A DNA stretch of 32,000 bases from Halomicronema hongdechloris C2206 (GTDB taxonomy: Bacteria; Cyanobacteriota; Cyanobacteriia; Phormidesmidales; Phormidesmidaceae), in assembly GCF_002075285.3 (NCBI RefSeq), contig NZ_CP021983.2:4050001-4082000 (forward strand). Reading direction: 5' to 3'. Made by a program: the position numbers and the translations under genes. Each line of letters opens with the position of its first letter. Positions within the stretch are counted from its first letter, which is position 1. A model generated the notes under the pieces. That model had not been told where the DNA came from and did no database searches. It was given only the letters and a program-made list of their open reading frames with translations. This document shows, piece after piece, positions 1,864-18,405 of this stretch.

Positions 1864-1906
1864 GTAGGGCAGGTATAAAAAGCCGATGTTTGTGACAATA
1901 GATTAA

Positions 1907-1940
1907 GCAGCTTTAACATCTACGCAGCTTTAACATCTAC
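1907..1940. repeat. Perfect 17-bp tandem duplication GCAGCTTTAACATCTAC x2 at the 3' end of IS630 orfB
   Basis: Read directly: 1907-1923 is identical to 1924-1940. Either copy yields the same protein end ...YVDVKAA*. Confidence 0.9.
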
Positions 1941-2573
1941 ATAGTGAGTGGAGTGGCCATTTTTCTCCCCCCTGTCTTCTAAGCCAATAACAACGTTGTA
2001 CGCCAGTTCTGCTTCACACTCAAACATCTGTCCAACCAGTTCATCGCGCTTGAGGTGCTGCCATTCCCCTTCAATGGGATTCATCTCTGAGCAATACGAG
2101 GGCAAGAAAAAGATATAGAGTCCCTGAGCTTCCCATTCAGCCCAGTGCTGTCGGGTCACCTGACTGGTGTGAATGGAGCCATTATCTTGCACAATCACGC
2201 GAATACGCCCGGTCTTGTCATACTCCGTCGCCGCATCTTTAGCCTGACCGGTGAGCATCGCGATATAGTCCTCACTCTTGAAGGAGCCAAACACGAGCCC
2301 ATAAATAAAGGTGATAAAGGGCTGCCATAGCCCCAAAATACTCAGCCGTCGTCCCCGCTTTTTCCTCTGTTCCTGGCGGTTTTGCTGACCGCGAAAATAG
2401 TAGCTGTAGCTGACGGGGCTCCACTGGCAGCAGCCTGACTCATCCAGATAGAACAAGTCAATGTCACCTGCTGCGGCAGCCAACTCCAGCATATCCAAGT
2501 CGGCTTGCTTGAGCGCTCGTTGGAGCGGGTCCTGACGCTCACGATGACTGTGGCGAGTGCGCTTCCAGATCAC
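1920..2573 (-). CDS. IS630-family transposase orfB (DDE catalytic part), probably fused to orfA by a -1 frameshift
   Basis: The ORF contains ...LFYLDESGC..., ...VIVQDNGSIHTS... and ...FFLPSYCSEMNPIEGEWQHLK.... This is the DD(34/35)E-type layout typical of IS630/Tc1. It has no plausible start of its own. Confidence 0.7.
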   Translation of the reverse strand: MIWKRTRHSHRERQDPLQRALKQADLDMLELAAAAGDIDLFYLDESGCCQWSPVSYSYYFRGQQNRQEQRKKRGRRLSILGLWQPFITFIYGLVFGSFKSEDYIAMLTGQAKDAATEYDKTGRIRVIVQDNGSIHTSQVTRQHWAEWEAQGLYIFFLPSYCSEMNPIEGEWQHLKRDELVGQMFECEAELAYNVVIGLEDRGEKNGHSTHYVDVKAA

Positions 2574-2980
2574 CCCCTTTTTTTGAGCACCTGCCGTAGA
2601 TAGTCAGGACTCAGATGAATGCGGCGCTCTTGTTCTAATTTTTCGGCCAATTGTGGACTCGTATACGTGCGTTCGTCCACTTGCAAGACTTGCTCGATGT
2701 ACACCATGTCTGCCTCTTGCCATCGGCGACGTTTTCCCCGACCGGGGGCTTCCCATAACCCACCTAATCCACCTGCCTGCCAGCGGTGTAGCGTTTTGCG
2801 AACCATCTCCACGTGCCAATTGAAAAAGGCTGCAATCATCTCAACATAGTCTCCCCGAGCATTCATGCGCATCACTTGGGCTCGGTCTTTGACCCGTTGA
2901 GGGACAGTCGTCGCTCGTTGCAGTTCTCGCAAGGTGCGATCTTCCTCGGGTGTCAGAAAGACCCGTAGTTGCATTCCCAT
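2570..2980 (-). CDS. IS630-family transposase orfA (helix-turn-helix part)
   Basis: ORF MGMQLRVFLTPEEDRTLRELQRATTVPQRVKDRAQVMRMNARGDY...LRQVLKKRG. It ends inside an A7G run that overlaps orfB. The start could be 2980 or 2974. Confidence 0.7.
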   Translation of the reverse strand: MGMQLRVFLTPEEDRTLRELQRATTVPQRVKDRAQVMRMNARGDYVEMIAAFFNWHVEMVRKTLHRWQAGGLGGLWEAPGRGKRRRWQEADMVYIEQVLQVDERTYTSPQLAEKLEQERRIHLSPDYLRQVLKKRG

Positions 2981-3440
2981 GACGCCCCCACCTGTCAAGC
3001 TACAAGTTGCAAACCTAAGCATACCTCGATGTTTTTAGCACGGGCTACTTATCAGAAACGCGCCTATCAATTGGAGTTCACAATACGGACGTATGAGTAT
3101 GTGCCGGACTAGTTTTGTCAGTCAACCAGGACCTGGAGTCATATTAGATTGATTCAATCTATCTATTGTACACTTTTGGGTACTATACAAGATTTGTACA
3201 TGGTTATTAGTATAAGAAGGTAATTAATTGTTCTTCTACTTTGCAGCAAAAAGCTCTTTTAGCTTTTTAAACCGATTGACTACTTACGTTCACTGCTGTT
3301 TGCATTTACATAAGAGGCAAGCTGTATTTATCTGTTTTTTGAAATTTTGTTACTTGAGTAGAATTGAGAATTATCGTAATAGTATTTTGAGCTAAACAAT
3401 TTTTAGTGTCGTTTTTTGTAATATGTGATTGGAAAAGAAT

Positions 3441-4280
3441 ATGAGCCAAATAAAAAAACTAAATCGATATAAGCAGAAGGTAGCATTGGGATTTGATCTA
3501 GCAGCTGCTGACTATGAGTCTCATTCCTTACGATATCTGCCAGACTGTGCAAACCATTTAGTTAAATTGGCAAAAATGCAAAGCGGGCAAAAGATTTTGG
3601 ATGTTGCAACTGGTACAGGCTTTGCGGCCCTTGCTGCGGCAAAATCTGTTGGGTCTACAGGTAATGTAATAGGGATTGACATTGCTAAAAATATGCTGGA
3701 AAAGTCGCAAGAAAATATAGAAGCTATGGGCTTTAAAAATGTAGAAATGCATGTGGGAGATGCTGAATCCCTAAATTTTAAAAATAATGAATTTGACGGG
3801 GTAATCTGCGCTTCTGGTATTTTTTTTCTTTCTGATGTAGTTGCTGCACTCCAAGAATGGAGACGGGTCACTAAAGAAGGAGGGTTTGTATCTTTTTCGA
3901 GTTTCGATCAAATAGCCTTTAAGCCCATGTTAGAACTGTTATTAACACGCCTTCAAAAACACTGTGTTTCAATGACAATGCCAGTTCCTGCCAAACAGAT
4001 TGATTCAACTGAGAAGTGTTATGACTCACTAAACAGTGCAGGGTTTGAAAAGATTGAAATACAAACTCAACAGCTTGGCTATTATCTCAATAACGTATAT
4101 GAGTGGTGGAACATAGTGTGGAACAGCGGTTTTAGATTCTATGTTTCACAACTGCCACCTGAAAATCTAGAGTTATTTAAAAAAGAACACCTTGCAGAAA
4201 TAGAAACTTATACCACAAAGCAAGGGATTTGGTTTGATGTTGAGACCATATTTGCTAAGGGTTTTAAAGAGACAGTATAG
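3441..4280 (+). CDS. Class I SAM-dependent methyltransferase (Methyltransf_11/UbiE-like)
   Basis: Motif I is ILDVATGTGFAALAAA, with an acidic post-I GIDIA and motif II/III FDGVICASGIFFL. The ATG at 3441 is preferred over the TTG at 3429. The gene is AT-rich. Confidence 0.8.
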   Translation: MSQIKKLNRYKQKVALGFDLAAADYESHSLRYLPDCANHLVKLAKMQSGQKILDVATGTGFAALAAAKSVGSTGNVIGIDIAKNMLEKSQENIEAMGFKNVEMHVGDAESLNFKNNEFDGVICASGIFFLSDVVAALQEWRRVTKEGGFVSFSSFDQIAFKPMLELLLTRLQKHCVSMTMPVPAKQIDSTEKCYDSLNSAGFEKIEIQTQQLGYYLNNVYEWWNIVWNSGFRFYVSQLPPENLELFKKEHLAEIETYTTKQGIWFDVETIFAKGFKETV

Positions 4281-4460
4281 CAATCATACAGAAAACCGTT
4301 CTCTAATTTTGTTTTGTTGTTTATTATCGATGTAAAAATTTAATACTGAAAATTAGGATCAATTAACTGATTTAGCTTATTCTGAAGCTTTTAAATTTTG
4401 GACATACAACATACGAAGAACCGACGAAGTTCTGACTTTTAAAAACTTTCAACGAAACAG

Positions 4461-5780
4461 ATGTATAATAGTTTGCACCAGCTTCGCGAAAAAATTTTGC
4501 ACTCTACTTGCAAAATAGGAGTTGTTGGTCTGGGATATGTTGGATTACCATTTGCTGTTGAAAAAGCAAAAGTAGGGTTTTCGGTGATTGGGGTGGACCG
4601 AAATTCAAAACGGGTAGCATGGGTCAACCAAGCCCATAACTACATTAAAGATGTCAAAGACTATGAATTAAAGCGCGTTGTAGAAAGTGGCTATTTTAAA
4701 GCAGAGGAAAGCTTTGGGCGTTTGTCTGAAATGGATGTCATCGTTATTTGTGTGCCGACCCCTCTTACTGAAGATTTAACCCCAGATATCAGCTATATCG
4801 AGGAAGTTACTCAAGAAATTGCCAAGCGATTGCGTCCTGGACAACTTATTTCCTTAGAATCAACTACTTATCCTGGCACAACAGATGAAGTAATATGCCC
4901 TATTCTTGAGCGCTGTAGTGGGCTTAAGCGAGGGAAAGATTTCTTCTTAGCCTATTCTCCCGAAAGAATCGATCCAGGTAATCAGCGCTACACAACAAAA
5001 AACATCAATAAAGTGGTAAGTGCTTCTGATGTTCACTCTCTAGAAGTTGCAACATTGTTCTACCAACAAACTATCGAAACTATTACCACCATCAGCAGTT
5101 CCAAAGTAGCAGAACTTTCGAAAATTTTCGAAAACACCTTTCGAGCAGTAAATATTGCTCTGGTGAATGAACTTGCTATGCTATGTGATCGTTTAGATAT
5201 TAATGTCTGGGAAGTGATAGATACCGCCAACACAAAACCATTTGGAATTATGCCTTTCTATCCGGGTCCTGGGGTAGGTGGTCACTGCATTCCAATTGAT
5301 CCCCATTATTTAAAATGGAAAGCTAAAGATGTCAACTTCAATGCCCGCTTCATTAACTTCGCCAGCGAAATTAATCGTCAGATGCCTTCTTTTGTCAAAA
5401 ATAAGGCATTTTCAATCCTTGATCGATTAGGAATAGCACCTTCCGTGTCCCGCTGTTTTATTTTGGGGGTGACCTACAAAAAAGACCTGCCTGACTTGAG
5501 GGAATCTCCCGCGATTTCAATCATCAAATTACTTCTAGAAGAGAAGGTTGTGGTGTCTTACTATGACCCATATATTCCTAAATTAGAAGTTGGAGAACAT
5601 TCCTTCAAAAGCACTTCTTTGACGGCAGAAAACCTCTCCTTTATGAATCTGGTCATCATCACCACTGACCATAGCCAGGTGGACTATGAAGCAGTGGTAA
5701 CCCATGCCCCTTATGTACTAGACACACGAGGGATAACTCGTCATCTAAATTGCGCTGGCGAGAAGGTAACAATGTTATGA
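4461..5780 (+). CDS. Nucleotide-sugar 6-dehydrogenase (UDP-glucose/GDP-mannose dehydrogenase family, UDP-HexNAc dehydrogenase-like)
   Basis: N-terminal Rossmann motif IGVVGLGYVGLP; ICVPTP; catalytic-Cys motif GPGVGGHCIPIDP; C-terminal UDP-binding-type domain (GVTYKKDLPDLRESPA). Confidence 0.85.
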   Translation: MYNSLHQLREKILHSTCKIGVVGLGYVGLPFAVEKAKVGFSVIGVDRNSKRVAWVNQAHNYIKDVKDYELKRVVESGYFKAEESFGRLSEMDVIVICVPTPLTEDLTPDISYIEEVTQEIAKRLRPGQLISLESTTYPGTTDEVICPILERCSGLKRGKDFFLAYSPERIDPGNQRYTTKNINKVVSASDVHSLEVATLFYQQTIETITTISSSKVAELSKIFENTFRAVNIALVNELAMLCDRLDINVWEVIDTANTKPFGIMPFYPGPGVGGHCIPIDPHYLKWKAKDVNFNARFINFASEINRQMPSFVKNKAFSILDRLGIAPSVSRCFILGVTYKKDLPDLRESPAISIIKLLLEEKVVVSYYDPYIPKLEVGEHSFKSTSLTAENLSFMNLVIITTDHSQVDYEAVVTHAPYVLDTRGITRHLNCAGEKVTML

Positions 5781-6883
5781 AACCAATCGTTTCTACTATG
5801 AATAGAGCTGTTAACCTCATGGATTTTGAGTCCATTGCACGAGAATGTTTATCGCAGCCTATCTGGAATTACTTCGCCAGCGGCGCTAACGACGAAATCA
5901 CACTGCGTAACAACCGTGAGGCATTTTCTCGTATTAATTTATACTACAAAGTTCTAGTGGATGTAAACGAGTGTTCCTTACAGACGCAGATTCTGGGTCA
6001 AAAAAATTCTATACCGATACTTATAGCACCTTTGGCGTTTCATAAACTAGCTCATCCCGATGGCGAGATGGCTACTGCTCGTGCTGCTGGCGCACAGGGT
6101 ACAATCATGATTCTAAGTACCATGAGCACGACACCAGTTGAAGAAGTAGTTGCTAATGCATCAGGCCCTATCTGGTTTCAGCTTTACATTTACAGAGACC
6201 GTGCGGTTACTAAAGCACTCGTCAAACGAGTAGAAGCAGCTGGTTGCTCAGCATTGGTATTGACTGTCGATGCTCCAGTAATGGGGCATCGCGAACGTGA
6301 TATTCGCAGCGGAGTAGATTTATTTGCTGAACTTCAACTAGAAAATGTGTTCGCCATGGACGTGTACAAAACTTCCGAAAATACGCGCAACAAAAACATG
6401 GCAGAACATTTTGCGTCACTTTTCGACCCTTCAATTACTTGGAAGGATATCGAGTGGTTGCGTTCGCTCACCAAGCTACCAGTTATCGTTAAGGGTATCA
6501 TTCGCGCCGATGATGCACAACACGCTGTGTGTAGTGGCGCCAGCGGTATTATTGTTTCCAACCACGGAGGGCGTCAACTCGATACAGCACCAGCTACTAT
6601 TGACGCACTGTCGCCTATCGTCGAATCAGTAGGCAAAAGTGCAGACATCTTCCTCGATGGTGGTATCTTACGAGGTACCGATGTTATCAAAGCATTAGCA
6701 CTTGGTGCTAATGCTGTCCTTATTGGTAGACCTGTACTCTGGGGATTAGCAGTAGGTGGCACTGAGGGGGTAGAGCACATATTCAAAATCCTACGCAATG
6801 AAGTCAATTTGGCTATGGCTTTGTGTGGTTGCCCGACAATAGCCGACATCAAATATGACCTGTTACGACCAAAAAATCGCTAG
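5777..6883 (+). CDS. FMN-dependent alpha-hydroxy-acid oxidase/dehydrogenase (glycolate / lactate / hydroxymandelate oxidase family)
   Basis: The family signature SNHGGRQLD is present. Also seen: AFSRI...LGQKNSIPILIAPLAFHKLAHPDGEMATARAA, LTVDAPVMGHRERD and DGGILRGTDVIKALALGA. The ATG at 5777 overlaps the upstream TGA (ATGA), which suggests translational coupling. Confidence 0.85.
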   Translation: MKPIVSTMNRAVNLMDFESIARECLSQPIWNYFASGANDEITLRNNREAFSRINLYYKVLVDVNECSLQTQILGQKNSIPILIAPLAFHKLAHPDGEMATARAAGAQGTIMILSTMSTTPVEEVVANASGPIWFQLYIYRDRAVTKALVKRVEAAGCSALVLTVDAPVMGHRERDIRSGVDLFAELQLENVFAMDVYKTSENTRNKNMAEHFASLFDPSITWKDIEWLRSLTKLPVIVKGIIRADDAQHAVCSGASGIIVSNHGGRQLDTAPATIDALSPIVESVGKSADIFLDGGILRGTDVIKALALGANAVLIGRPVLWGLAVGGTEGVEHIFKILRNEVNLAMALCGCPTIADIKYDLLRPKNR

Positions 6884-7016
6884 TAGCTACTAGTTAAGTA
6901 ATAGCTTTCATCAGAAAGAGGTTTTGAGCTGAATAGACAGCGTCTTCAGTATAAATTATTATTGTAACCTTCTTTGGTAATCCGAAAAATTCATTACGTA
7001 ATAGAATATTGTTCAT

Positions 7017-7178
7017 ATGATAGAACATACTCAACGACGAGACGGTGAGCTAATAGATCTTGGAATAGGACGACCTGATTTTGCGCTTCTTCCTCTTGCA
7101 GAACTCCGAAAGGCTTCTGCACACCGATTTTCTCTAATAGATACAAGCTGTCTTCAGTACTCGCCAGAAGCGGGTCGT
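7017..7178 (+). pseudogene. Class I/II PLP aminotransferase, N-terminal 54 codons (gene split by an IS)
   Basis: MIEHTQRRDGELIDLGIGRPDFALLPLAELRKA...LQYSPEAGR. The reading frame then runs into the IS inverted repeat. Confidence 0.7.
7170..7178. repeat. Target-site duplication GCGGGTCGT (left copy)
   Basis: An identical 9-mer sits at 8344-8352, immediately outside the IS inverted repeats. Confidence 0.85.
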
Positions 7179-8343
7179 GGGAGCATCTCATTTTTGCGAG
7201 AACCCAGCATCTGTGCTGAGATGAAAGGGTAGTCTCTACCCCAAAAGCTCTTGTCCCCCGAAGACCAAGCCGCCTTAGCCCAGCATAGCCGCGAGATTGC
7301 CAAGATTCTGCATCGCAATAGCCCTCCTGAAGCCGTTGACACACTTGAAGGCATTGAAACGACGGTGCGGCAGCAGATGCTGGAGCACGTCAGTCCCGAA
7401 GTGGGAATTTTTTTGTCGAAGCGTGCACCCAAACCCAACGGGGACGCCCCCGGCAGCTAAAAAGTGTTCTGGGGACCCTCCCGATTCGGGAACAGCAAGC
7501 CCAGCGGTTGGGCCTCGAACCCCACGGTCGTCTCAGCCCGCTCTTTGAGAAATGTGCGTTGCGGGTTGCGGCCTGCCAAAGCTATGGGAAAGGCGAAACC
7601 GACGTGTCCGTTTTAACGGGGATGTCGTTGAGTCATTCAACGCTGCAACGCCTCGTGCAACGCCAACGTGAGACCCCACCGGAGGCGAAGCAGACGGTCA
7701 CCGAGATCAGTGTCGATGGCGGTAAAGTGCGCCTGCGGCATCCGGAAAAAGGCGAACCCAGTTACTGGAAAGAATACAAGAGTGCTCGGGTCGAGAATCT
7801 GTACTATGGGGCGGCGTTTCAGGCAAATGACTGGCTGCAAGACTGGCTAAATAGCCAACCGTTAGCGAACCCCATCATCTGCCTTGGCGATGGGCATCGG
7901 GGCGTCTGGGCGGTGTTTCGTCCCATCGCCACCGTGGAAACCCGTTTAGAAATTCTCGATTGGTACCACTTGGTCGAAAACCTCTATGGAGTTGGGGGCT
8001 CATTAAAACGGCTGAAACAAGCCAAAGCTCTGTTATGGGAAGGGCGGGTTGATGAAACCCAGGCGTTATTTACCGACTGCGCTCTGGAGCAAGCCCGGCG
8101 ATTCTGTGATTACTTGGAGCGACATCGTCACCGAATTGTGAATTACGGCTATTTTCAAGCTGAACAAATCTGTTCGATTGGCTCAGGTGCAGTTGAGTCA
8201 GCCATCAAGCAGATTGACCATCGCATGAAACTCCCAGGCGCTCAATGGGTGCCCGACAATGTTCAGCAAGCCTTGCAGGTGCGATGTGCCTATCTGAATA
8301 GAGCCTACGATTGTTGATGTTTTTGCAACTTTGAGATGCTCCC
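7179..8343 (+). mobile_element. 1165-bp GC-rich insertion sequence (ISKra4-family-like) interrupting the aminotransferase gene
   Basis: Inverted repeats: left GGGAGCATCTCATTTTTGCGAGAAC; reverse complement of the right end GGGAGCATCTCAAAGTTGCAAAAAC (12 perfect terminal bp). There is a 9-bp direct repeat, an internal transposase, and GC-rich composition unlike the flanking island. The family call is from memory (GGG ends, 9-bp duplication, C-terminal SGAVESAIKQI...PGAQW motif). Confidence 0.7.
7251..8317 (+). pseudogene. IS transposase, read in two frames (frameshift near 7436-7450)
   Basis: Frame A is 7251-7460 (SPEDQAALAQHSREIAKILH...GIFLSKRAPKPNG). Frame B, from about 7442, runs GRPRQLKSVLGTL...LGDGHRGVWAVF...DWYHLVENLY...IGSGAVESAIKQIDHRMKLPGAQW...*. 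Whether the shift is a mutation or programmed cannot be decided from the sequence. Confidence 0.6.
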
Positions 8344-8352
8344 GCGGGTCGT
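8344..8352. repeat. Target-site duplication GCGGGTCGT (right copy)
   Basis: Identical to 7170-7178. Confidence 0.85.
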
Positions 8353-9324
8353 CCTTCACTACGCGGGCATCTCGCAGACTTTCTCACCCGCCATTACGGT
8401 TCTGTGGTACGTCCTGAGAGACTTTTTTTGACTGCTGGTGCATCACATGGACTTGACCTCATTTCAGGATGCTTTGCGCAACCTGGAGATACGGTATTTG
8501 TTGAGGCTCCAACATACTTCTTAGCACTCAAAATACTCCAAGGGAGGAACTTACGCATTGTATCGGTTCCAACTGATTCTGATGGACTCGATGTAGTTGC
8601 TTTAGAACATTTGCTGGAGATGGAGAAACCAGCATTTCTCTACACAATTCCTGTACATCACAATCCAACAAGTGTCACGCTATCAGTGGTAAGGCGAAGG
8701 AAGTTAATAGAGTTGGCTGAAAAACACAAATTTTTCATCATAGCCGACGAAGTTTATCAACTTCTTAACTATAATGGATATACTCCGAGCCGATTGGCTG
8801 CTTTCGATGATAGCAGAGTCATATCTTTAGGGTCATTCTCAAAGATACTTGCTCCTGGGTTACGGCTTGCTTGGATTGAGACAGAACCGAAGCATTTTTC
8901 TGTACTTGGCCGATGCGGCGTTATCAAAAGTGGTGGTGGCGTCAATCCATTTACTTCAGCGATTGTCGAAAGCGCGATTACACTTGGGCTACAAGATTCT
9001 TATCTAGAGCGCGTACGTAAGGTTTATAGCCAACGGTGTGCTCATATGATCCAAGTCCTTGATCATGTACTTCCTAAAGTAGTAGGTTTTACAAAACCGA
9101 AAGGAGGGTTCTTCGTGTGGCTAAAACTTCCGCAATATATTGATAGTAAGGAGTTACTCGCAGAGGCTCAGATACTCAAAATTGGGTTTCGTCCTGGTTC
9201 CCTCTTCTCGCAAGAAGAAGGTTTCACAAATTTCTTGCGGATTTGTTTCGCTTATTACAATGAAGCTGAAAGCGAGTGGGCCTGCAAGCAACTCGGACGT
9301 TTATTTTCTAGTCATTTACAATAA
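8353..9324 (+). pseudogene. Class I/II PLP aminotransferase, C-terminal 323 codons
   Basis: In frame from the duplication: (AGR)PSLRGHLADFLTRHYGSVVRPERLFLTAGASHGLDL..., HHNPTS, IADEVYQ, and the PLP-lysine motif SFSKILAPGLRLAW. The family looks like aromatic / 2-aminoadipate / kynurenine aminotransferases. Confidence 0.8.
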
Positions 9325-9358
9325 TTCCCACCTTTACTATCGACTTAGTTAATATCAA

Positions 9359-11578
9359 ATGAAAAATTTATTGCCCGTTGAAACATTACTTGCTGAACTT
9401 GGCGCTTTTGGCAAACTGCCCAAAAATAATGTTTTTCATAGAGAATGGACTCAAGAAAACCAGGAGCAAGACTTCAAGACTGCATTGAACAGTCCACTTT
9501 TCGCTCTTCACAAAACTTCTGATGTTAACGACATCGAATCTATCCAAATTGACGACGCACGGCGAGTTTTACGTTTGAAACGGCAGATAGCGTCTTGGAT
9601 CGTAGAGTACGCTGAACTAATCGGTGGAGTCGAGTGGGCTCGCTTATCGCATCAGAGCGAAATCCAAGAAAAGGCTGAACTAATCGCGACCCAATCGCTC
9701 GAAACGAAAGCTGAGATTCTGAGACTGCAAAGAAGAATTGTCAAACGATTTATTGATGGTAGAAGAAACTACTTTGAGCGAGAACAGTCAGCATCCTTCG
9801 ATGAAATCGAAGCAATGGCTAAGGAAAAACGCGAAATTTTCATTATCATAAAATTTATGGACGAAGCACCTCATATAAGGGCTACTTTGAAATCCTTAGT
9901 GAATCAAAAGTCCATAGACATGGAACGTGTCGTAATCGTCGCTGTCGATAATAATTCGACAGATGGCTCAGATAAAATTGTCAAGCTTGTTATTGCCGAA
10001 AACACAAGCAGAGCACGCATAATATATACGAATCAACCGATATCTGGAGGTGGGAGTGCTGCTCGATTTGGTGTAGATCGCATCATTTCAACTATCTATG
10101 AAATGTGCCTCCACGATAATGATTGGGAACGGTTGGAGCGAGCTATAATCGCTGTGTCTGACGGTGATACGGTGTATCATCCTCAGCTACTGGCAGATAA
10201 CGTTGCTATCTTAAATACAGATTCGACTGTGGATGGCGTTATGCCGTTCTTGACCTACAAGTATACGGCTGCTTTACGACTCTTTGCTAAATACACATCC
10301 AGGTTTTCTGAAGACTTGCGACCTCACGCCAATTGCGCCAAAGCTGTGGCTGTCCCTGTTGATCTTTCTACAATAGAAGCTTACATCCAGATACCGCGAC
10401 ACCAGAGGAGAGTGATAGATGATGAAACAATAGAATTGATAATTATTGACCGAGAAGGAGTTGAAACAATTCGAATCGTTAAACTGAATAATCGCGACGC
10501 TCTGGGACGCAAATTTGCCGCTCTCATAGACAATGAAGGACACCTCGCTTACGTCTTGTCGAACCGCACAATCGTTCTTGACGAAGCTCCAGTATCAGGG
10601 ACAGATGCCGCACTTGTTTATTTGGAAAACGATAGCGTGAAGGAAGATGAAAAGTGGCGCTGGCACGCGGTAATCGGTCACGATTTATTTCTAAGTTGGG
10701 CATTTGAAGAAATGGGGCTACCAGAAGAGAGCATTTTCCCAGATACTAGCGATGCATTAAAGATGTTTCGCGTTTGGAGTTTTGCAGTCGGCGGTCAACA
10801 CCAACTAAAGAAACCTGATTTGAATATCGTTACTGGTACGGACTATCAATCGGGTCGAGTCTTGCAGGCAGTTGGTAATGTAATTCGCCTTGGACCAGCT
10901 CATGCATACTCCGAGACCGAGATTGATCGATTGATTAAGATGATCCGTAATTTTGCAAAGGGGCAAAGTGTTTTCTACGGCGAAACCAGAAGCTCGAATG
11001 TTGAAAGAGCAAGTGGGCTCTATTTGCACATGACCCGCATTCAAAATGCGGTCGAAAATGAAGTACGCAACTTCTCTGAAGACTTCTTCAGAGAGGTTGT
11101 TTTCCCAGAAAGGATTATTTTTCCCCTGCGATGGATACTACAGAATGCTGTACGTTTCTATGCACACAAGGAACCATGCGCAAGAGATATTGTAGAACAA
11201 CGAGTGCTAAATACTATATTTTCTCCAGAAACCGTTGTACAAATTAAACAGAAATGGATTACAGAGACAACCATTGCAACGATTAGAAGTGTGGAGTACA
11301 TAAACAAACAGAAGCAAGCTGAGAAAACTGCAGAGGGTATTATAAAAGAGCATTATCGAGAAATAATGTCCTTTTATAAAAAGACGCTACAATCTTTTTT
11401 CGATGCCTATCAGATAGAGCCTCAGCATTATTCTTGGTTGCTCGAAGGCGTAGAGCAGTCGAGAAATGCCCTAGTTGAAGATCTCCCCCGTGTCCATCCT
11501 TCGGCAGTCTGGCAAGGCAAGGAATTTGTTATCGATAACGCTAGAGGGCAGGTCTTAAAATTTTATTCTTCTAGTTAG
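9359..11578 (+). CDS. Large (739 aa) uncharacterised protein with an embedded GT-A (family-2-like) glycosyltransferase core
   Basis: An uninterrupted AT-rich ORF. Residues about 170-290 read IFIIIKFMDEAPHIRATLKSLVNQ...VAVDNNSTDGSDKIV...AVSDGDTVYHP, which fits the GT2 layout (NxxxxL..SL.NQ, DxxSxDGS, DxD). The roughly 170-aa charged/coiled N-terminus and roughly 440-aa C-terminus match nothing I recognise. Confidence 0.7.
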   Translation: MKNLLPVETLLAELGAFGKLPKNNVFHREWTQENQEQDFKTALNSPLFALHKTSDVNDIESIQIDDARRVLRLKRQIASWIVEYAELIGGVEWARLSHQSEIQEKAELIATQSLETKAEILRLQRRIVKRFIDGRRNYFEREQSASFDEIEAMAKEKREIFIIIKFMDEAPHIRATLKSLVNQKSIDMERVVIVAVDNNSTDGSDKIVKLVIAENTSRARIIYTNQPISGGGSAARFGVDRIISTIYEMCLHDNDWERLERAIIAVSDGDTVYHPQLLADNVAILNTDSTVDGVMPFLTYKYTAALRLFAKYTSRFSEDLRPHANCAKAVAVPVDLSTIEAYIQIPRHQRRVIDDETIELIIIDREGVETIRIVKLNNRDALGRKFAALIDNEGHLAYVLSNRTIVLDEAPVSGTDAALVYLENDSVKEDEKWRWHAVIGHDLFLSWAFEEMGLPEESIFPDTSDALKMFRVWSFAVGGQHQLKKPDLNIVTGTDYQSGRVLQAVGNVIRLGPAHAYSETEIDRLIKMIRNFAKGQSVFYGETRSSNVERASGLYLHMTRIQNAVENEVRNFSEDFFREVVFPERIIFPLRWILQNAVRFYAHKEPCARDIVEQRVLNTIFSPETVVQIKQKWITETTIATIRSVEYINKQKQAEKTAEGIIKEHYREIMSFYKKTLQSFFDAYQIEPQHYSWLLEGVEQSRNALVEDLPRVHPSAVWQGKEFVIDNARGQVLKFYSSS

Positions 11579-11674
11579 AGGTCGAGCCAGAGGTCGCCTT
11601 CTGATAGGAGAGCGTCGCTAAATAAGGTAGTGAAACAAAAATCTGCGGTAGATCTAGCGAAGCTGTCATGAAAG

Positions 11675-11713
11675 GCAATCTAACTCGAAATCATTGTTCT
11701 GCAAGGGTTTCAA
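11675..11713 (+). repeat. Copy A of a ~40-bp dispersed repeat (GCAATCTAACTCGAAATCATT...AGGGTTTCAA)
   Basis: It aligns by eye with 14254-14293 (GCAATCTGAACTTGAAATCATT...TAGGTTTTAG) in the same orientation. The two copies bracket the amidinotransferase relic and trpBA. Confidence 0.6.
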
Positions 11714-11876
11714 AATTGGTTTTAAGCGATCGCCAGAGAAGTTTATTTTTGCAATTTTTGGATAGTTTATGAAAAATTGTGATATTTTTTCGAGAACTAA
11801 AATCAATAAAAAATATATACTGCAATAGTCTTAGAGATTATAGATCGAAAGCTATTTTCATCATCTTAAACACTAA

Positions 11877-12065
11877 AAGCTGCAATATTTTCTACAATTG
11901 CCCCTCATGATAACACTGGCTAGTTTTATCCCAATTAAAGAACTGGAACGATATAAAATTGATGTTATTCCCTTGAGTTTACGCCACGCTAGGACTCTCG
12001 GCGGAAGATTTTACTGCGTCACATTAGATGTGAGAAGAAAAGGCTCACTCGAATCCTATGTCTGA
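11877..12065 (+). pseudogene. Amidinotransferase (AGAT / CyrA / SxtG-type), C-terminal relic only
   Basis: The open frame after TAA 11874-11876 reads [62 protein letters not shown]. The end resembles the conserved amidinotransferase C-terminus, which I recall as ...[22 protein letters not shown]. The upstream ~300 codons are absent. Confidence 0.6.
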
Positions 12066-12193
12066 TTATCTCTTTTTTGTCATAGTAGAATCAAATTTTC
12101 TCTGAGTGACAAAAGCGTCTCACTCTTGAGAAAAACAGTCTATATTTATGCAAAGTTTAGCATCCATAACATAAATAGAAATTTCAAATAATC

Positions 12194-13396
12194 ATGACAG
12201 AACAACAATTCAACAAATTACCCGACCAAAATGGCTATTTTGGTAAATATGGAGGGCGTTTTGTACCAGATACCTTGATGGAACCACTGATACAACTTGA
12301 AAAAAACTATTATTCTTTAAAGGGTGATGAGAATTTTCAAAGAGATCTATTACATTTTCAAAAAACCTTTATAGGGAGACCAACTCCTCTATATTTCGCA
12401 GAAAATCTTTCACGGAAAGTAGGTGGCGCGAAAATATATTTCAAGAGAGAAGACTTAGCACATACAGGTGCACACAAAATTAATAATGCCATTGGTCAGA
12501 TTCTTCTTGCCAAATATATGGGCAAAAAGCGAATTGTTGCTGAAACGGGCGCAGGGCAACATGGCGTAGCAACAGCGGCAGCTTCTTCAGTACTCGTTTT
12601 AGACTGCTTAGTCTACATGGGTGAAAAAGATATGGAAAGACAACAGCCCAATGTTGAACGTATGCGATTGATGGGAGCAGAGGTTCAGGCTGTTGAATCA
12701 GGCTCGCGGACTTTAAAGGATGCAGTGAGTGAAGCAATGCGCGATTGGGTAACTAACATTGATGATACTTATTATTTATTAGGATCGTCATTAGGACCAC
12801 ACCCCTATCCCTTAATTGTCCGAGATTTCCAAAAAGTTATAGGTATAGAGGCTAGGAAACAAATTATGGAGGTGGAGACGCAAATGCCAGCCGAAGTTAT
12901 CGCCTGTTTGGGCGGAGGAAGTAATGCTATTGGTATTTTTTATGGATTTATGGAAGACGATGTAAAGCTGATTGGGATTGAGGCAGGAGGGTCTGATATA
13001 TCTCCTGGTCAGCATGCTGCTAGATTTTCTGGTGGACGTATTGGTATTTTTCAAGGAATGAAGACATTCGTCTTGCAGGATCAAGAAGGACAAATTGAAT
13101 TAACGTCAAGTATTTCGGCAGGTTTAGATTATGCAGGAGTTGGTCCTGAGCATGCTAACCTCTTGGATAAAGGACGTGCAAATTATCTCTATGTAAATAA
13201 TGTAGATGCTATGGAAGCATTAAAAATACTTTGTAAAGAAGAGGGCATTATTCCTGCTCTCGAATCAGCGCACGCAATAGCTTATGTACTTAAAAAAGCT
13301 AAAGAATATGATAGGTCGCAAAGTCTTATTGTAAATCTTTCAGGTAGAGGCGATAAAGATGTGAGTATAATCCAAGACTGGAAATTTAAAAAATGA
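12194..13396 (+). CDS. trpB: Tryptophan synthase beta subunit
   Basis: [12 protein letters not shown], the PLP-lysine motif [27 protein letters not shown] and [11 protein letters not shown]. It is full length at 400 aa. Confidence 0.95.
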
Positions 13397-14190
13397 GAAC
13401 TATTCGTGATTCTATTAAAGAAAAAAATAGAGATGGCTATACTGCTTTAGTACCGTATATTCTGCTTGCAGATCCTGATTTTGAAACGACAAAGCAAGTA
13501 ATTTTCGCTTTGTCTCGTACAGGCTGTACAGCAATTGAACTTGGACTTCCCTTCACCGATCCAATAGCTGATGGGCCAGTAATTCAGAAAGCCACAGAGC
13601 GAGCTCTTAACAAAGATATTTCGCTGAAATTAATTTTTCAATTTATTTCAGATTTGAGGAAGGAAGGGTTAAAAATCCCTATTGCAATATATACATACAG
13701 TAACTTGGTTTATAATATTGGGTACGATAGTTTTTGTAAGGAAGCAATAAAAGCGGGGATACAAGGAGTCCTAATTGTTGATCTTCCTCCAGAAGAGGCT
13801 CATGAGTTTATGAATGTAAATTCTCAAGATTCTTTGGAAACTATATTTCTTTGTTCTGCCACTACAAGCGAAGAACGTCTCCCTAAAATCAATAGTGCAT
13901 CAACAGGATTTACCTATTATGTTGCTCAAAAGGGAGTTACTGGAATGCGGGAGTCTTTACCAGACGGATTAACTGAAAAACTTACTAAATTACGTGAATA
14001 TATTACTACTCCGCTTGCCGTTGGTTTTGGTATATCAAAACCTAAACACGCAAAGGCTCTTGCCCCTTATGCAGATGCTATCGTTATAGGAAGTGCGTAT
14101 GTTAATATGTTTGAATCATATCAAGGACGTGAACTTGTTGAAAAGATAGAGTCCTTTACAACTTCTATTGTATCTGAACTTAAAAAATAA
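13393..14190 (+). CDS. trpA: Tryptophan synthase alpha subunit
   Basis: [17 protein letters not shown] (catalytic Glu/Asp region), YYV...GVTG and GFGIS. The ATG overlaps the trpB stop (ATGA). Confidence 0.9.
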
Positions 14191-14253
14191 ACGTTGTTAA
14201 TAGTGGATTTACAGCTGCGACATGGTGAAAAACTAGGGTTGGTGTCACCAGAC

Positions 14254-14293
14254 GCAATCTGAACTTGAAATCATTACAGGCTATAGGTTTTAG
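14254..14293 (+). repeat. Copy B of the ~40-bp dispersed repeat
   Basis: See 11675-11713. It lies at the AT-rich to GC-rich transition. Confidence 0.6.
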
Positions 14294-14430
14294 TCTCTAA
14301 CTCATGGGAACTGGGCAGTGGGAAGTTCTCTGTCCGGTAGCGAGACGGTAAGGAAAACGGACATGGGCTGAGTCAACTGACCCATCATGTCCGAAACTGG
14401 CTGATATAAAGCGTTTCAGCCAGTACTATT

Positions 14431-14801
14431 ATGAAACTTTTCCAGCGTCTTGAGCAAATCTTAGGCGACTTCCGTCCCGTCTTTAGCCGGGAAGCCCCGT
14501 TTCGATGGTTCGTCCTGCTGGTATGGGGCATCCTGCTCAATAGCCAACCGGCAGCGGTTACCAGTTAGGTGAACGCCCTGGGTTTGAGCGAACATGTCTA
14601 TCCGCAGGCGCTGCATTGGTTTGAGTCCAGTGCCTTTAGCGTGCAAACGCTCTGCGAACACTGGGGACAGTGGCTGAGCCAGCATGCTAACGGGTATCGC
14701 ATCAAGGGAGAACGTGTCTATGTGGCAGACGGTATTAAGGTAGCCAAAGAGGGACGAAAGATGCCCGCAGTGAAGCGTCTGCATCAAGAATCTGAGGATG
14801 T
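14431..14801 (+). pseudogene. Transposase N-terminal fragment (IS4/IS701-like), with an in-frame stop and truncated by another IS
   Basis: MKLFQRLEQILGDFRPVFSREAPFRWFVLLVWGILLNSQPAAVTS*VNALGLSE...ADGIKVAKEGRKMPAVKRLHQESEDV. The TAG is at 14566-14568. The frame ends at the inverted repeat of the next element. Confidence 0.55.
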
Positions 14802-16556
14802 GAGCCGACATTCCGCAGGTTGACAGGGAATAAAAGATGTGGAGTGGTCTAGGCTAGAAACCGTTGCTTCTGGCGGTGTCATCCTCCCTTGCAGATTGAA
14901 AATTTAGACCATCTGGGTTTAGTGGCCGGTCTTATCGATGAACTTGGCCTGGTTGAACTGAGCGATGACCTGATTGAGCCCCATTGCTTAGAGCACGTCA
15001 GTGCTGGCCAAGTGGTGAAAGCGATGATTTTGAACGCCCTGGGGTTTCTCAGTGCCCCGTTGTACCTGTTCAGCGAGTTCTTCGAAAGTAAAGCCGTGTC
15101 TCATTTACTGGGAGAGGGGGTTGAGGCCCATCACTTGAATGATGACCGCTTGGGGCGTGTCTTGGATGACCTCTAGGAGGCGGGCACCACCTCATTTTTT
15201 ATGACCGTGGCGCTACAGGCGGTCAACCGATTTGAGATTGACATTCAGCAGCGCCATCTCGATGCCACCTCTATCGCGGTGGAGGGTGAGTATCAGATCG
15301 CCTCCGAGGTCGAAGCGGAAGCCACGCCTGAGTCAGAGCCCCTAAGTGAGCCCTCAGCAGAACCGACCCCGATTCGACTCTGCCGAGGGTACTCCCGAGA
15401 TCACCGCCCGGATTTGAAACAGTTTTTGATGACCCTGGTGTGTGCCGCTGACGGCGGCGTGCCCTTGTGGTTGAAGGTGGCCAGTGGCAATGAGCACGAC
15501 AGTCAGCAGTTCGCGAGTGTAGTGACGGAATTTAGCCAACAGTGGACCAGCGACGGCATCGTTGTCATGGATGCGGCCTTCTATAATGAAGCGAATCTGC
15601 AGCAGCTGGGCTCTATGGGGTGGCTGTCGCGGGTCCCCCTAACGCTGAAAGCCGCTCAAGACCTGGTACATCGCGACGTCACCACACTGAGTGAAGTCCC
15701 CTGCAGCCTGAAGGATTACCGACTGTGGGAGGTGGAGTCGACCTATGGTGGGGTGCCTCAGCGCTGGATTCTGGTCGAAAGCCAGACCCGCAAAGCCGAT
15801 GCCGCCCTCTGGCAACCGGAACTGGAGAAGCTAGAACGCAGGCTCAATCACCAATTGAAATCGCTCAGCCAGCAGACCTTTGCCTGTAAACCCGATGCCT
15901 TAGAGGCCTTGATGCAGTTTCAAGACCGTCTGGAGGTGCATCAGCTCACTCAGGTTTCGGTTCAGACCGTGCGGGCGAAACGCGCCCCCGGTCGTCCGGC
16001 CAAATCCGCCGAGGCCACCCCCGTTCAGGGGTATCGTCTCCAGGCCACCTTGGAGCGCACCACCACCGCCGAAGAGACCTTTAGCCGACAGCGCAGCCGC
16101 TTCATTCTCGCCACGAATCAGCTGGATAATACCCTCTGGCCCGCCGAGAAACTCCTGAGCGAATACAAAGGGCAACAGACCGTGGAGCGAGGCTTTCGCT
16201 TCCTCAAAGACCCCCTCTTCTTTGCCAGTAGCGTCTTTGTCAAAAAGTCCCAGCGAGTTGAAGCCTTGGCCCTGATCATGGCCCTCACCTTGATGGTCTA
16301 TACGCTCGCCGAACGGAAGACTGGACGCCCAGCACCAAACGGTGCGGAACCAACGCAAACAGCCCACCGCTAAGCCCACCTTTCGCTGGATTATGCAGAA
16401 GTTTCAAGGCATTCACTGGGTCAAGCTGGAGGGGCAACGGCAGATTAGCAATCTCAATGATGAGCGGCGACTGATTATTCACCTCTTGGGTCCACCCGTT
16501 GAGCGCTATTACTATGCCCCTGGTTAATTATTTGTCAACCTGCGGAATGTAGGCTC
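14802..16556 (+). mobile_element. IS1634-family (IS4 superfamily) insertion sequence, 24-bp terminal inverted repeats
   Basis: Left end GAGCCGACATTCCGCAGGTTGACA; reverse complement of the right end GAGCCTACATTCCGCAGGTTGACA (23/24). No flanking direct repeat was recognised. Confidence 0.7.
14889..16527 (+). pseudogene. IS1634-family transposase, inactivated (in-frame TAG 15174-15176, frameshift near 16320-16345)
   Basis: IENLDHLGLVAGLIDELGL..., CRGYSRDHRPDLKQFLMTLV (a hallmark of the family), and VVMDAAFYNE. The C-terminus continues in another frame (RNQRKQPTAKPTFRWIMQKFQGIHWV...). Confidence 0.7.
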
Positions 16557-16771
16557 TTAGCCTTGTGTCCGAAAATTGGGGGTCATTTCAAGCTATCGCT
16601 TACTCAGGCGGCCAAATTCGTAGCGTGCTGAGTTACACTCTGTTTGAGTCGGGGTCATGCTGATAAACCGCTGAATGTTTTGTGGTGATTACATTCTCGC
16701 CGGTTTTTGACCCCGATTCATCTTCTCTTGTGAGATATCCGGGCTGAGATATCCCTGATTTGATTGGGCTC

Positions 16772-17446: not shown

Positions 17447-17474
17447 ATCGCCCGGTGACATCAACCAACGACTC

Positions 17475-18395: not shown

Positions 18396-18405
18396 ATAAT
18401 CGTCC

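Follow-up and report, generated by a model that had tools for sequence, protein, structure and literature searches.

A low-GC gene island of very probably foreign origin, with an apparently broken small-molecule cassette, in Halomicronema hongdechloris C2206

In the chromosome of the chlorophyll-f cyanobacterium Halomicronema hongdechloris C2206 (genome GC 54.6%), the DNA at 3144-14306 of the window (the whole 32,000-nucleotide stretch analysed here, positions 4,050,001 to 4,082,000 of contig NZ_CP021983.2) is very probably foreign. It was probably acquired horizontally and recently from a low-GC donor and has since been trimmed by insertion sequences (IS), its cassette apparently now broken. 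The island spans 11.16 kb: about 10.0 kb would be foreign DNA, and the remainder is one later IS. All island genes lie on the + strand, as the initial annotation had it. The features, in coordinates of the window, are:

613..3143, + strand: IS4-family element at the left border (inverted-repeat pair 613-634 / 3115-3136, 86% complementary)
699-1277 and 1357-1662: IS4 transposase fragments in the left-border element
1920-2573 and 2570-3022, - strand: transposase ORFs of an IS630 element nested in the left IS4 (matches of 100.8 and 52.6 bits)
3144..14306, + strand: AT-rich island, very probably foreign (GC change points; GC3, codon and tetranucleotide contrasts)
3441..4280, + strand: predicted class I SAM-dependent methyltransferase, 279 aa, ASC72883 (Pfam Methyltransf_31/25/11, E 1e-21 to 1e-25)
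4461..5780, + strand: predicted NDP-sugar 6-dehydrogenase of the UDP-ManNAc / UDP-GlcNAc dehydrogenase-like branch (TIGR03026, 409.6 bits vs cut-off 189.8)
5777..6883, + strand: predicted FMN-dependent alpha-hydroxy-acid oxidase, 368 aa (PF01070, 464.9 bits)
7017..9324, + strand: predicted class I/II aminotransferase split by an IS (PF00155; N-terminal part 7017-7178, C-terminal part 8353-9324)
7179..8343, + strand: ISKra4-like IS, 1165 bp, 53% GC (NF033572, 243.3 bits vs cut-off 205)
9359..11578, + strand: predicted GT-A (GT2-like) protein, 739 aa, XM38_038500, signature gene of the cassette (PF00535, 35.9 bits vs 23.3)
11726..11733, no strand: the only HIP1 octamer of the island, in the spacer 3' of the GT-A gene
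11898..12065, + strand: amidinotransferase remnant, the last ~55 codons, region of the catalytic-Cys motif (phmmer, tblastn)
12194..13396, + strand: predicted tryptophan synthase beta chain, TrpB (TIGR00263, 593.7 bits vs cut-off 392.45)
13393..14190, + strand: predicted tryptophan synthase alpha chain, TrpA (TIGR00262, 245.8 bits vs cut-off 102.35)
14307..14794, + strand: 5' fragment of an IS701-family element at the right border (NF049999, E 3.4e-9, conceptual translation)
14795..16563, + strand: IS1634-family element within the IS701 fragment (inverted repeats 14795-14834 / 16524-16563)
14889-15176 and 15201-16373: IS1634 transposase ORFs (NF033559, 70.8 and 250.6 bits)

Maximum-likelihood change points in GC fall at 3141 (0.52 to 0.34) and 14306 (0.37 to 0.53), in agreement with the breaks that the initial annotation had placed by eye at 3143/3144 and near 14200-14300. 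Windows of 500 bp have 33-46% GC over 3001-7000 and 8501-14500 and 50-64% elsewhere; the GC-rich block inside the island (53% GC) is bounded by change points at 7162 and 8423. Leaving out this block, the island has 40.2% GC and the host genes (16400-32000) have 55.6%; GC3 is 0.22-0.40 in seven island genes and 0.50-0.69 in 12 host genes. The contrast reported between A/T-ending codons inside and GCC, CTG and CGC outside was borne out by counting: the shares inside the island and in the host are 70-71% and 46% for AAA/GAA among Lys/Glu codons, 14% and 54% for GCC among Ala codons, and 9% and 29% for CTG among Leu codons. The tetranucleotide signature, which had been proposed as a check together with sliding-window GC, likewise gives a clear contrast, with an island-host correlation of 0.41-0.43 against 0.85 between the two halves of the host DNA. 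The correlation of the island with its closest foreign relative, a metagenomic contig (L001), is 0.77.

All nine HIP1 octamers listed earlier lie exactly where they were placed, including the single island site at 11726. The density per kb, another check proposed, comes to one in ~10 kb of island and eight in 15.4 kb of host DNA. The latter rate would predict 5.2 sites in the island (Poisson P(X<=1) = 0.035). The count is consistent with HIP1 depletion, and is weak on its own. At the same position a sister copy of the island (L033) reads GCGATCAC, one base different.

Horizontal acquisition, which the initial annotation had derived largely from composition, is also supported by the affinities of the GT-A protein and TrpB and by synteny with L001. 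The named relatives found for both proteins, whose taxonomy was to be recorded by BLASTP, are non-cyanobacterial. Those of the GT-A protein belong to Actinomycetota, Pseudomonadota and Acidobacteriota, and no homologue from another cyanobacterium is among 89 database matches and 21 species-level genome loci, the latter from a collection that itself lacks C2206 and is thus incomplete. The nearest named relatives of TrpB are alphaproteobacterial metagenome-assembled genomes (65-69% identity), and no cyanobacterial name occurs among the top 120 matches.

The sister copy, found in one metagenome, is 96-97.6% identical to the island of C2206 (dS 0.03-0.11). It has the same gene order from methyltransferase to trpA, an intact aminotransferase gene, and IS insertions that differ from those of C2206: between the methyltransferase and dehydrogenase genes, where an 84% identical copy of the end of the right-border IS701 element is inserted, and at the trpB/trpA junction. 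Its left end carries another IS4-type element, at most 20 bp from the corresponding point in C2206, and the copy is embedded in IS DNA of 50-60% GC. Between the two copies dN/dS is 0.17-0.31, which indicates that they were under purifying selection for most of the time since they diverged, so that 'decaying' fits individual genes and not yet the whole island. The only backbone relative found, a Halomicronema-like genome in the same sample (L114-L117), is 77-79% identical to C2206 with dS 0.76-1.5, and its retrieved loci end at the CPA2 gene, some 4 kb before the island junction would be reached. Island proteins are present in sample 3300022719 and absent from 3300022725, which holds the 93-kb contig of this relative. 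The sister copy could come from a closely related, unseen H. hongdechloris strain, rather than from the 79%-identical relative.

The IS inside the island has what defines the ISKra4 family: a transposase of that family, terminal inverted repeats (28 nt, 7176-7203 / 8319-8346) and a target-site duplication, here the 9-bp GCGGGTCGT at 7170-7178 and 8344-8352. The sister copy has the empty site, with a single copy of the target sequence, and in-silico excision of the IS with one duplication copy yields a 377-aa aminotransferase ORF that is 97.6% identical to the intact sister gene. That this GC-rich IS inserted after the island arrived, as had been suggested, is shown directly by the duplication, by the unoccupied target in the 97%-identical sister and by the frame restored on removal. 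The transposase is truncated or frameshifted, covering only profile positions 107-420 of NF033572 with its N-terminal part in another frame, and the element is for this reason probably non-autonomous.

At least five IS families had been described on the two flanks; five are indeed present if the internal ISKra4 is counted, but the flanks hold only four, and host genes start past the IS1634 element (after 16563). The host flank on the left is beyond the window. We found no tRNA genes in the window, no integrase or recombinase among its ORFs, and neither flanking direct repeats of at least 16 nt nor att repeats around the island. Viral relatives and close plasmid relatives of the cassette were not found either. 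The island resembles compositionally atypical genomic islands in its abrupt GC and codon borders, its association with IS and its accessory metabolic cargo with foreign best matches, deviating in composition, codon usage and oligonucleotides and carrying genes of patchy, foreign distribution. Unlike typical islands, it lacks an integration or mobility apparatus of its own, a tRNA target, direct repeats at its ends, conjugation genes and phage genes, and it sits in nested IS remnants and is partly pseudogenised.

If the DNA were native and vertically inherited, its low GC would reflect a local mutational or selective bias, and both the one HIP1 site and the purifying selection on its genes could be accommodated. 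We consider this highly improbable, and the idea is already largely refuted, given a GC3 gap of 20-40 points, sharp borders that fall exactly on IS ends, a tetranucleotide fit to the foreign contig well above that to the host (0.77 vs 0.42), cargo for which GT-A and TrpB searches gave no cyanobacterial homologues, and a HIP1 site that is one base off in the sister copy. An assembly artefact, in which a contaminant contig was stitched into the chromosome, is extremely improbable. The composition does resemble that of another organism, and the C2206 genome paper mentions contigs of low coverage in a previous draft; however, that paper also describes closure of the chromosome with three sequencing technologies. 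The island further holds an IS of host-like composition with a clean 9-bp duplication, and the independent sister copy, too, is embedded in GC-rich IS DNA and carries an IS701-type end related to that at the right border of C2206. Movement between genomes by means of the flanking IS, past or present, would fit the IS that abut both ends in C2206 and the different IS4-type element at nearly the same left position in the sister. It is nevertheless quite unlikely: no duplication brackets the island, and the IS of the two copies are different elements. A composite transposon was rejected as a class, the left IS being of the IS4 and the right of the IS701 family, with no similarity between them by blastn or tblastx. 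Horizontal acquisition from a low-GC donor, recent enough that composition and codon usage are still unlike those of the host, is thus the reading that we prefer. The DNA may have come in on a larger element or as naked DNA, and would later have been trimmed and bombarded by host IS (IS4/IS630 on the left, IS701/IS1634 on the right, ISKra4 inside).

The cargo consists of three unrelated parts: a four-gene core (dehydrogenase, oxidase, aminotransferase and GT-A protein), the methyltransferase, and trpB-trpA. The methyltransferase, whose annotated start was confirmed by exact look-up, matches no NCBIfam equivalog at or above the cut-off. The dehydrogenase has all three UDPG_MGDP_dh domains and best PDB matches to 4r16 and Cap5O; it passes the subfamily model TIGR03026 only, and assignment as a UDP-N-acetyl-D-mannosamine dehydrogenase was rejected (NF040825, 275 vs 750 bits; NF008286, 243 vs 459). 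Its gene overlaps that of the oxidase, the best PDB matches of which are L-lactate oxidase, glycolate oxidase and hydroxymandelate oxidase. The names L-lactate oxidase, LldD and MftD were rejected for this protein (TIGR02708, 285 vs 645.5; NF033901, 282 vs 550; TIGR03966, 261 vs 471), and the C2206 annotation calls it '4-hydroxymandelate oxidase'. In the hydroxyphenylglycine (Hpg) biosynthesis of glycopeptide pathways, Hmo and HpgT are an FMN hydroxymandelate oxidase and an aminotransferase. The island likewise has an FMN alpha-hydroxy-acid oxidase together with a class-I aminotransferase, a combination that may lead from hydroxy acid through keto acid to amino acid. It differs in having no hydroxymandelate synthase, in an aminotransferase of the KAT / LysN / MppQ branch, and in coupling the pair to two partners without counterpart in the Hpg pathway, an NDP-sugar dehydrogenase and a GT-A protein.

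The nearest solved structures to the aminotransferase are archaeal kynurenine and multi-substrate aminotransferases, LysN and MppQ. Its best NCBIfam matches (194-225 bits) are the PLP enzymes MppQ (enduracididine) and GntC (guanitoxin), which act on guanidino amino/keto acids, and the cassette likewise often has an amidinotransferase; however, the scores are far under the equivalog cut-offs of 540 and 415, and the Gnt partners are absent. Assignment as MppQ was rejected (TIGR04461, cut-off 540 bits; the window fragment scores 194, the intact L001 gene 225), and homologues of MppP and MppR were not found in the window.

In the GT-A protein, D268-G269-D270 and about 110 more columns are invariant among 29 homologues. 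PF00535, the DxD motif and the structural core place it in GT2 (GT-A fold), and sugar transfer is predicted. The AF2 model has a pLDDT of 90.4. Foldseek aligned SpsA, TarP and K4CP on about 150 residues (probability 1.0); PDB matches are limited to this ~150-residue GT-A core, TM-scores to solved structures are 0.25 or lower, and a PDB profile search gave E 0.065 or worse. The protein shares a Rossmann-like nucleotide-binding core with SpsA, TarS/TarP, K4CP chondroitin polymerase and hyaluronan synthase, and the N-terminal 'DNNSTDGS'-type and DxD (DGD) motifs with solved GT2/GT-A enzymes, but unlike these it is 739 aa long, with a long-helix region at the N-terminus and ~450 residues at the C-terminus. 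For these two regions no non-family homologue was found in the PDB or among 1.84 billion representative proteins, the latter matching only a ~80-residue nucleotide-binding segment. Our searches found no characterised homologue.

The amidinotransferase remnant lies just 3' of the GT-A gene, the place of the amidinotransferase in Angelobacter, Dactylosporangium and Micromonospora NPDC050980. Against the PDB (phmmer) it aligns to the C-termini, including the catalytic Cys region, of StrB1 (1bwd, E 3.6e-11) and human AGAT (E 1e-7), and so resembles the Arg:Gly amidinotransferases (AGAT, StrB1, SxtG, CyrA-type), of which the island retains only ~55 codons. It matches the cassette amidinotransferases by tblastn (E 7e-8), with 27-33% identity over 42-52 aligned residues; given this identity and the better match to StrB1, orthology with the cassette enzyme is not established. 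The trpB and trpA genes are adjacent and coupled, overlapping by 4 bp, and both pass their equivalog models, by which they are predicted to be a bona fide pair. Supernumerary trp genes are known in cyanobacterial accessory clusters, such as the scytonemin cluster of Nostoc punctiforme. The island is alike in holding an extra tryptophan-pathway copy in an accessory locus, and unlike in having trpB-trpA only, with non-cyanobacterial affinities and linked to the cassette in no other genome.

Elsewhere the cassette occurs in Actinomycetota, Pseudomonadota and Acidobacteriota, and no other cyanobacterium was found to have the core block; counting all 26 loci, the four-gene core is conserved over at least four phyla. 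Its companions are an amidinotransferase (full-length beside the cassette in 8 of the 26 loci), an esterase, and LysE, EamA or BenE transporters. Among syntenic relatives of the core, L001 (41.7% GC, about 75% DNA identity) is the closest; its block closes with LysE and has no trp genes. In Vreelandella neptunia the cassette lies in a stretch of 30-34% GC beside DNA of 59-66% GC, with luxI/luxR adjoining, the one such case. Full-text searches of the literature found nothing on this cassette.

All eight genes could instead form one functional pathway to a glycosylated, methylated indole-derived metabolite, with TrpA/TrpB supplying indole or tryptophan for conversion by the aminotransferase, FMN oxidase, methyltransferase and GT-A/dehydrogenase. 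Their single strand, short gaps and overlaps (trpB/trpA and dehydrogenase/oxidase), the kynurenine and aromatic multi-substrate relatives of the aminotransferase, the low dN/dS and the order retained in the sister copy all agree with this. We nonetheless regard it as unlikely, given the IS in the aminotransferase gene, the sister insertions at the methyltransferase/dehydrogenase gap and the trpB/trpA junction, and the L001 block that ends without trp genes. In none of the 25 other loci does any of the three, methyltransferase, TrpB or TrpA, adjoin the GT-A gene.

Returning to a recently acquired island of three parts, the term 'accessory module' used in the initial annotation is right as to horizontal acquisition, but overstates present function, since one gene is IS-split and another is a ~55-codon stub. 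Judging from the genes, the cassette pathway of C2206 appears to be broken, with the aminotransferase split, the amidinotransferase reduced to ~55 codons and no esterase or exporter left; trpBA and the remaining island ORFs are intact. The island is non-autonomous and eroding, and as a class ordinary. Tentatively, the cassette may direct synthesis of a small exported metabolite of glyco-amino-acid type. In this scheme a UDP-hexuronic (HexNAcA-type) donor, or else an acid made from a primary alcohol, would come from the dehydrogenase. The oxidase would turn an alpha-hydroxy acid into an alpha-keto acid, the aminotransferase would turn this into an alpha-amino acid, and the GT-A enzyme would couple the sugar to an acceptor, with a guanidino group added in the amidinotransferase-bearing variants. 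The cassette itself is widespread, uncharacterised, prone to horizontal transfer and of a small-molecule type.

The AT-rich block at 3144-14306 is a non-autonomous genomic island that this IS-rich cyanobacterium acquired recently; as a phenomenon it is ordinary and well behaved. In 500-bp windows, GC content is 33-46% at 3001-7000 and 8501-14500 and 50-64% in the rest of the window. The initial annotation had placed abrupt compositional breaks near 3143/3144 and 14200-14300, and likelihood change points fall at 3141 and 14306, with an inner GC-rich block limited at ~7162 and 8423. GC content is 40.2% in the island minus this block, 53% in the block and 55.6% in host genes, and GC3 is 0.22-0.40 in the seven island genes versus 0.50-0.69 in twelve host genes. 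The A/T-ending codons read by eye inside the island, and the GCC, CTG and CGC codons outside it, are real on codon count. Tetranucleotide profiles correlate at 0.85 between the two host halves, at 0.41-0.43 between island and host, and at 0.77 between the island and L001, a foreign contig with the closest syntenic core. The island therefore deviates from its host by both measures that had been suggested, sliding-window GC and tetranucleotide usage.

The window is strongly enriched in the cyanobacterial octamer HIP1 (9 sites versus 0.45 expected), and all nine coordinates listed by the initial annotation are exact. HIP1 density is lower in the island, as anticipated there (1 in 10 kb versus 8 in 15.4 kb of host), although with a Poisson P = 0.035 this depletion is suggestive only. 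The sole island site (GCGATCGC, 11726-11733) reads GCGATCAC in a 97%-identical sister copy of the island (metagenomic contig L033, ~6320), so that it was gained or lost via one transition after the copies diverged; the direction of the change could be set only with an outgroup.

All island genes lie on the + strand, as had been claimed, and the left border is indeed the outer end of an IS4-family inverted repeat. The GT-A ORF, identified by homology search, is 100% identical to XM38_038500 of C2206, and further ORFs of the window match C2206 proteins exactly.

Features of the island and its borders (window coordinates)
613-634 and 3115-3136: inverted repeats of the IS4-family element at the left border, with an IS630 nested inside
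3441-4280, +: SAM methyltransferase
4461-5780, +: NDP-sugar dehydrogenase (TIGR03026 passed; no substrate-specific equivalog passed)
5777-6883, +: FMN alpha-hydroxy-acid oxidase
7017-7178 plus 8353-9324, +: class-I aminotransferase, split
9359-11578, +: GT-A protein (739 aa), followed by a 615-bp spacer
12194-13396, +: trpB (equivalog cut-off passed)
13393-14190, +: trpA (equivalog cut-off passed)
from ~14307: 5' end of the IS701-family element at the right border, interrupted by an IS1634 element at 14795-16563
right of the IS1634 element: host genes, including an sll1863-family gene, GGDEF, CPA2, folP and psbQ

Within the island, Rfam gave zero matches to riboswitches or leader RNAs, and promoter and terminator scans returned counts at or below shuffled expectation. 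Near 3164, different IS elements adjoin the island in C2206 and in the sister copy, no more than 20 bp apart. Among the first bases common to both copies are TGTACA-type palindromic half-sites, TATTGTACACTTTTGGGTACTATACAAGATTTGTACATGG (3164-3200; 2240-2276 in the sister contig L118), which may either mark where the island originally ended or belong to a regulatory site in front of the methyltransferase gene.

The inner GC-rich block is a 1165-bp ISKra4-like element (7179-8343) with 28-nt terminal inverted repeats, bracketed by a 9-bp target duplication, GCGGGTCGT, at 7170-7178 and 8344-8352. L033, which is collinear with the island here, has a single GCGGGTCGT and so provides the empty site. 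With the element and one duplication copy excised in silico, the aminotransferase gene is again a single ORF of 377 aa, which shares 97.6% identity with its L033 counterpart. The element thus arrived later than the island, as the initial annotation had supposed from its host-like composition, and inactivated an otherwise intact aminotransferase gene.

The sister copy consists of three contigs that tile the island, all from JGI metagenome 3300022719.

Contigs of the sister island copy
L118: window 3164-4331, 95.9% identity
L033: window 4324-7178 at 96.5% and 8344-11748 at 97.5% identity
L009: window 11733-13530, 92-97.6% identity

This copy has no ISKra4 insertion but carries lesions of its own. 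An IS701-type element, with duplication TTATGGAT, lies between the methyltransferase and dehydrogenase genes, and its end is 84% identical to the IS701 end at the C2206 right border. The assembly is broken at ~11733-11748, an IS1 sits at the trpB/trpA junction, and another break falls within trpA; the left end lies 20 bp inside the C2206 border, against a different IS4-type element. The two copies are separated by a dS of 0.03-0.11, with a dN/dS of 0.17-0.31, which indicates that the island genes were under purifying selection for most of their divergence time.

Backbone syntenic with window positions 19.6-31.9 kb was found in 3300022719, in a second sample and in two sequencing-run assemblies, with 77-79% DNA identity to C2206 and a dS of 0.76-1.5. 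Should the sister island reside in this relative, its age would be less than a tenth of that of the species split, and it must have moved horizontally. Island proteins were recorded from 3300022719 only, and not from sample 3300022725, the source of the relative's 93-kb contig Ga0254891_1000268, a pattern that fits either a strain-variable island or a different, unseen host. A metagenome scan with the host CPA2 protein returned zero contigs above 70% identity, and a homology search for the relative's ortholog did not recover it.

Two further observations concern the host backbone. A full-length match to Rfam NsiR1 (RF02399) lies at 26743-26796 on the + strand (55.5 bits versus a gathering score of 39, E 1.6e-8), and occurs once, in the intergenic stretch that separates the rhodanese gene from the DUF389/TIGR00341 gene; the 79%-identical relative has a syntenic counterpart that scores the same (contig L114, 5538-5591, - strand). 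NsiR1 is described from heterocyst-forming cyanobacteria, as tandem copies, and H. hongdechloris is not known to form heterocysts. The longest folP (Pterin_bind) ORF, at 22711-24003, has 430 aa with the domain at residues 164-410, and the relative's called gene (L114, 8396-9289) has 297 aa. The ~130 extra N-terminal codons in the window probably reflect an ORF that was called too long rather than a real extension.

The GT-A protein has 89 relatives in the database and 21 species-level genome loci, and none of either set is cyanobacterial. They occur in Actinomycetota (Micromonospora, Streptomyces, Nonomuraea, Dactylosporangium and others), in Alpha-, Beta- and Gammaproteobacteria (Azospirillum, Burkholderia gladioli/oklahomensis, Azohydromonas, Chitiniphilus, Vreelandella and Marinobacter) and, at 60% identity, in the acidobacteriote Ca. 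Angelobacter. The family is tightly conserved across phyla, with a mean column identity of 55% and ~110 invariant residues, of which many fall in the C-terminal half. Its AlphaFold model is confident (pLDDT 90.4, pTM 0.91). In Foldseek, the part that aligns to known glycosyltransferases is limited to a GT-A core of ~150 residues, and TM-scores reach at most 0.25. Sequence and profile searches of the PDB gave a best E of 0.065, and a closer structural identity was sought by sequence, profile and fold without going beyond a generic GT2 core. Among 1.84 billion representative proteins, a profile search found 22 matches at E <= 1e-30, all family members or fragments, and the weaker matches were confined to an ~80-residue nucleotide-binding segment. 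Beyond its GT-A core, this signature enzyme is thus without structural or sequence relatives.

Among 26 distinct loci, genes on the same strand and within 6 kb of the GT-A gene encode an FMN oxidase (17), an esterase (15), an NDP-sugar dehydrogenase (14), a 160-aa protein (10), a class-I (9) or IlvE-like class-IV (7) aminotransferase, an AGAT-like (Arg:Gly) amidinotransferase (8), BenE (7) and LysE (3). The methyltransferase, TrpB and TrpA adjoin it in this window only, so that the island comprises one conserved cassette and two unrelated passengers. The core has its closest relative in L001, a sequencing-run contig of 9.7 kb with 41.7% GC, no HIP1 and ~75% DNA identity, in which a LuxR-type regulator is followed by dehydrogenase, oxidase, aminotransferase, GT-A and LysE genes. 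We found no publication describing this gene combination.

A second AT-rich island with the same cargo, this one intact, is present in Vreelandella neptunia HM116 (L028, NZ_JAKVTW010000017.1), in the order amidinotransferase, 160-aa protein, oxidase, LysE, aminotransferase, GT-A, esterase and dehydrogenase. GC stays at 30-34% over at least 10.5 kb (L028 1-10900), and the DNA directly adjoining has 59-66% GC and starts with a recD-like gene. The cassette is followed by genes for an autoinducer synthase (LuxI, 8854-9504) and a receptor (LuxR, 9513-10247, - strand), a pair that may regulate it. Marinobacter F3R11 has a similar, milder GC contrast, and in most other hosts cassette GC equals host GC. 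These cases indicate that the cassette has repeatedly been caught as freshly transferred DNA. In Micromonospora gifhornensis (L007, 1-22103), an oxidase-GT-A-dehydrogenase trio is part of a larger cluster that also contains a type I PKS, an EryCIII-like glycosyltransferase, CalS8/CalS9-like UDP-sugar enzymes, an adenylation enzyme and a carrier protein. Larger natural-product pathways of actinomycetes may thus use the trio for tailoring.

The spacer that follows GT-A carries the final ~55 codons of an amidinotransferase (11898-12065). At the same place several genomes have a full-length AGAT-like gene (E 3e-76 to human AGAT), or one fused to the GT-A C-terminus. We at first took the remnant for the cassette's own amidinotransferase and now regard it only as a possible orthologue: it matches the accompanying amidinotransferases at E 7e-8 with only 27-33% identity, and it matches StrB1 better, whose C-terminus is the top PDB match (E 3.6e-11) ahead of human AGAT (E 1e-7). 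The fusion is seen in three metagenomic proteins of ~1070 aa (P0034, P0042 and P0044), and it argues that both enzymes act on one molecule. A 150-bp segment covering most of the remnant (11933-12082) is kept in C2206 and deleted in L009, so the gene is being eroded by independent deletions in the two copies.

The island DNA is foreign, host IS inserted into it after arrival, and the pathway is incomplete in C2206. The proposal of horizontal acquisition stands on the compositional contrast, on the GT-A protein without cyanobacterial relatives, and on TrpB, whose closest named relatives are alphaproteobacterial MAGs (65-69%). As to the vehicle, a prophage is ruled out by a GT-A protein without viral relatives. 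A plasmid would find its best support in GT-A proteins on Azospirillum megaplasmids, but these are the only plasmid-borne ones and are ~50% identical, and plasmid DNA matches to the island are none beyond generic trpB or dehydrogenase similarity; this origin is also ruled out. The flanking IS would suit a composite transposon, which is rejected since the IS4-family and IS701-family elements are unrelated to each other. There is no tRNA in the window, which eliminates a tRNA-targeted island, nor is there an integrase or any direct repeat flanking the island. We suspect that the DNA entered by transformation or on a larger element since stripped of its mobility genes, and that the present borders would then have been set by IS insertions and IS-mediated deletions.

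For the cargo, an NDP-sugar 6-dehydrogenase could supply a uronic-acid donor or carboxylate, the FMN oxidase and aminotransferase could convert an alpha-hydroxy acid via a keto acid to an amino acid, and the GT-A enzyme could couple the sugar with an acceptor before export through LysE, EamA or BenE, with an amidinotransferase (adding a guanidino group) and an esterase as optional steps. Such a short route to a small exported molecule is suggested, at low confidence, by the recurring set of enzymes. An alternative sub-route from glycolate through glyoxylate and glycine to guanidinoacetate is suggested by the characterised enzymes that best match the oxidase, the aminotransferase (whose matches include alanine:glyoxylate aminotransferase) and the amidinotransferase, but it leaves the GT-A protein and the dehydrogenase unexplained. 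A more novel reading, which we hold to be less likely than not, is that the cassette makes a small glyco- or guanidino-amino-acid metabolite for export by an undescribed pathway, and that its GT-A enzyme carries a catalytic or recognition domain with no relatives elsewhere. Such a cassette would travel between phyla as compact islands, with an amidinotransferase, esterase, 160-aa protein, LysE or BenE exporter and LuxI/R as optional parts, and would appear as AT-rich islands in the GC-rich marine hosts Halomicronema, Vreelandella and probably Marinobacter.

The C2206 genome is a single 5,577,845-bp circle of 54.6% GC with 123 IS-related ORFs in 22 families (PMC6416890). The H. hongdechloris literature that we found on this point is that genome paper only, which does not mention the region; its proteome supplements lack tags XM38_038430-038520, but this carries no information, since we had extrapolated these tags and the supplements may use another format. 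The C2206 copy itself is degraded and unlikely to have a physiological role, with the exception of a spare tryptophan synthase that is possibly functional.

For H. hongdechloris, the island offers a clean and datable case of foreign DNA that arrived recently and is being dismantled by the large IS load of the genome, in which the empty-site control fixes the order of events. The cargo adds modest interest, as a decaying copy of an apparently undescribed cassette around an orphan GT-A enzyme that spans Actinomycetota, Alpha-, Beta- and Gammaproteobacteria, Acidobacteriota and this cyanobacterium. Given that intact cassettes are present in culturable Burkholderia gladioli, Vreelandella neptunia and Azospirillum, one of them beside a quorum-sensing pair, the product is experimentally accessible.
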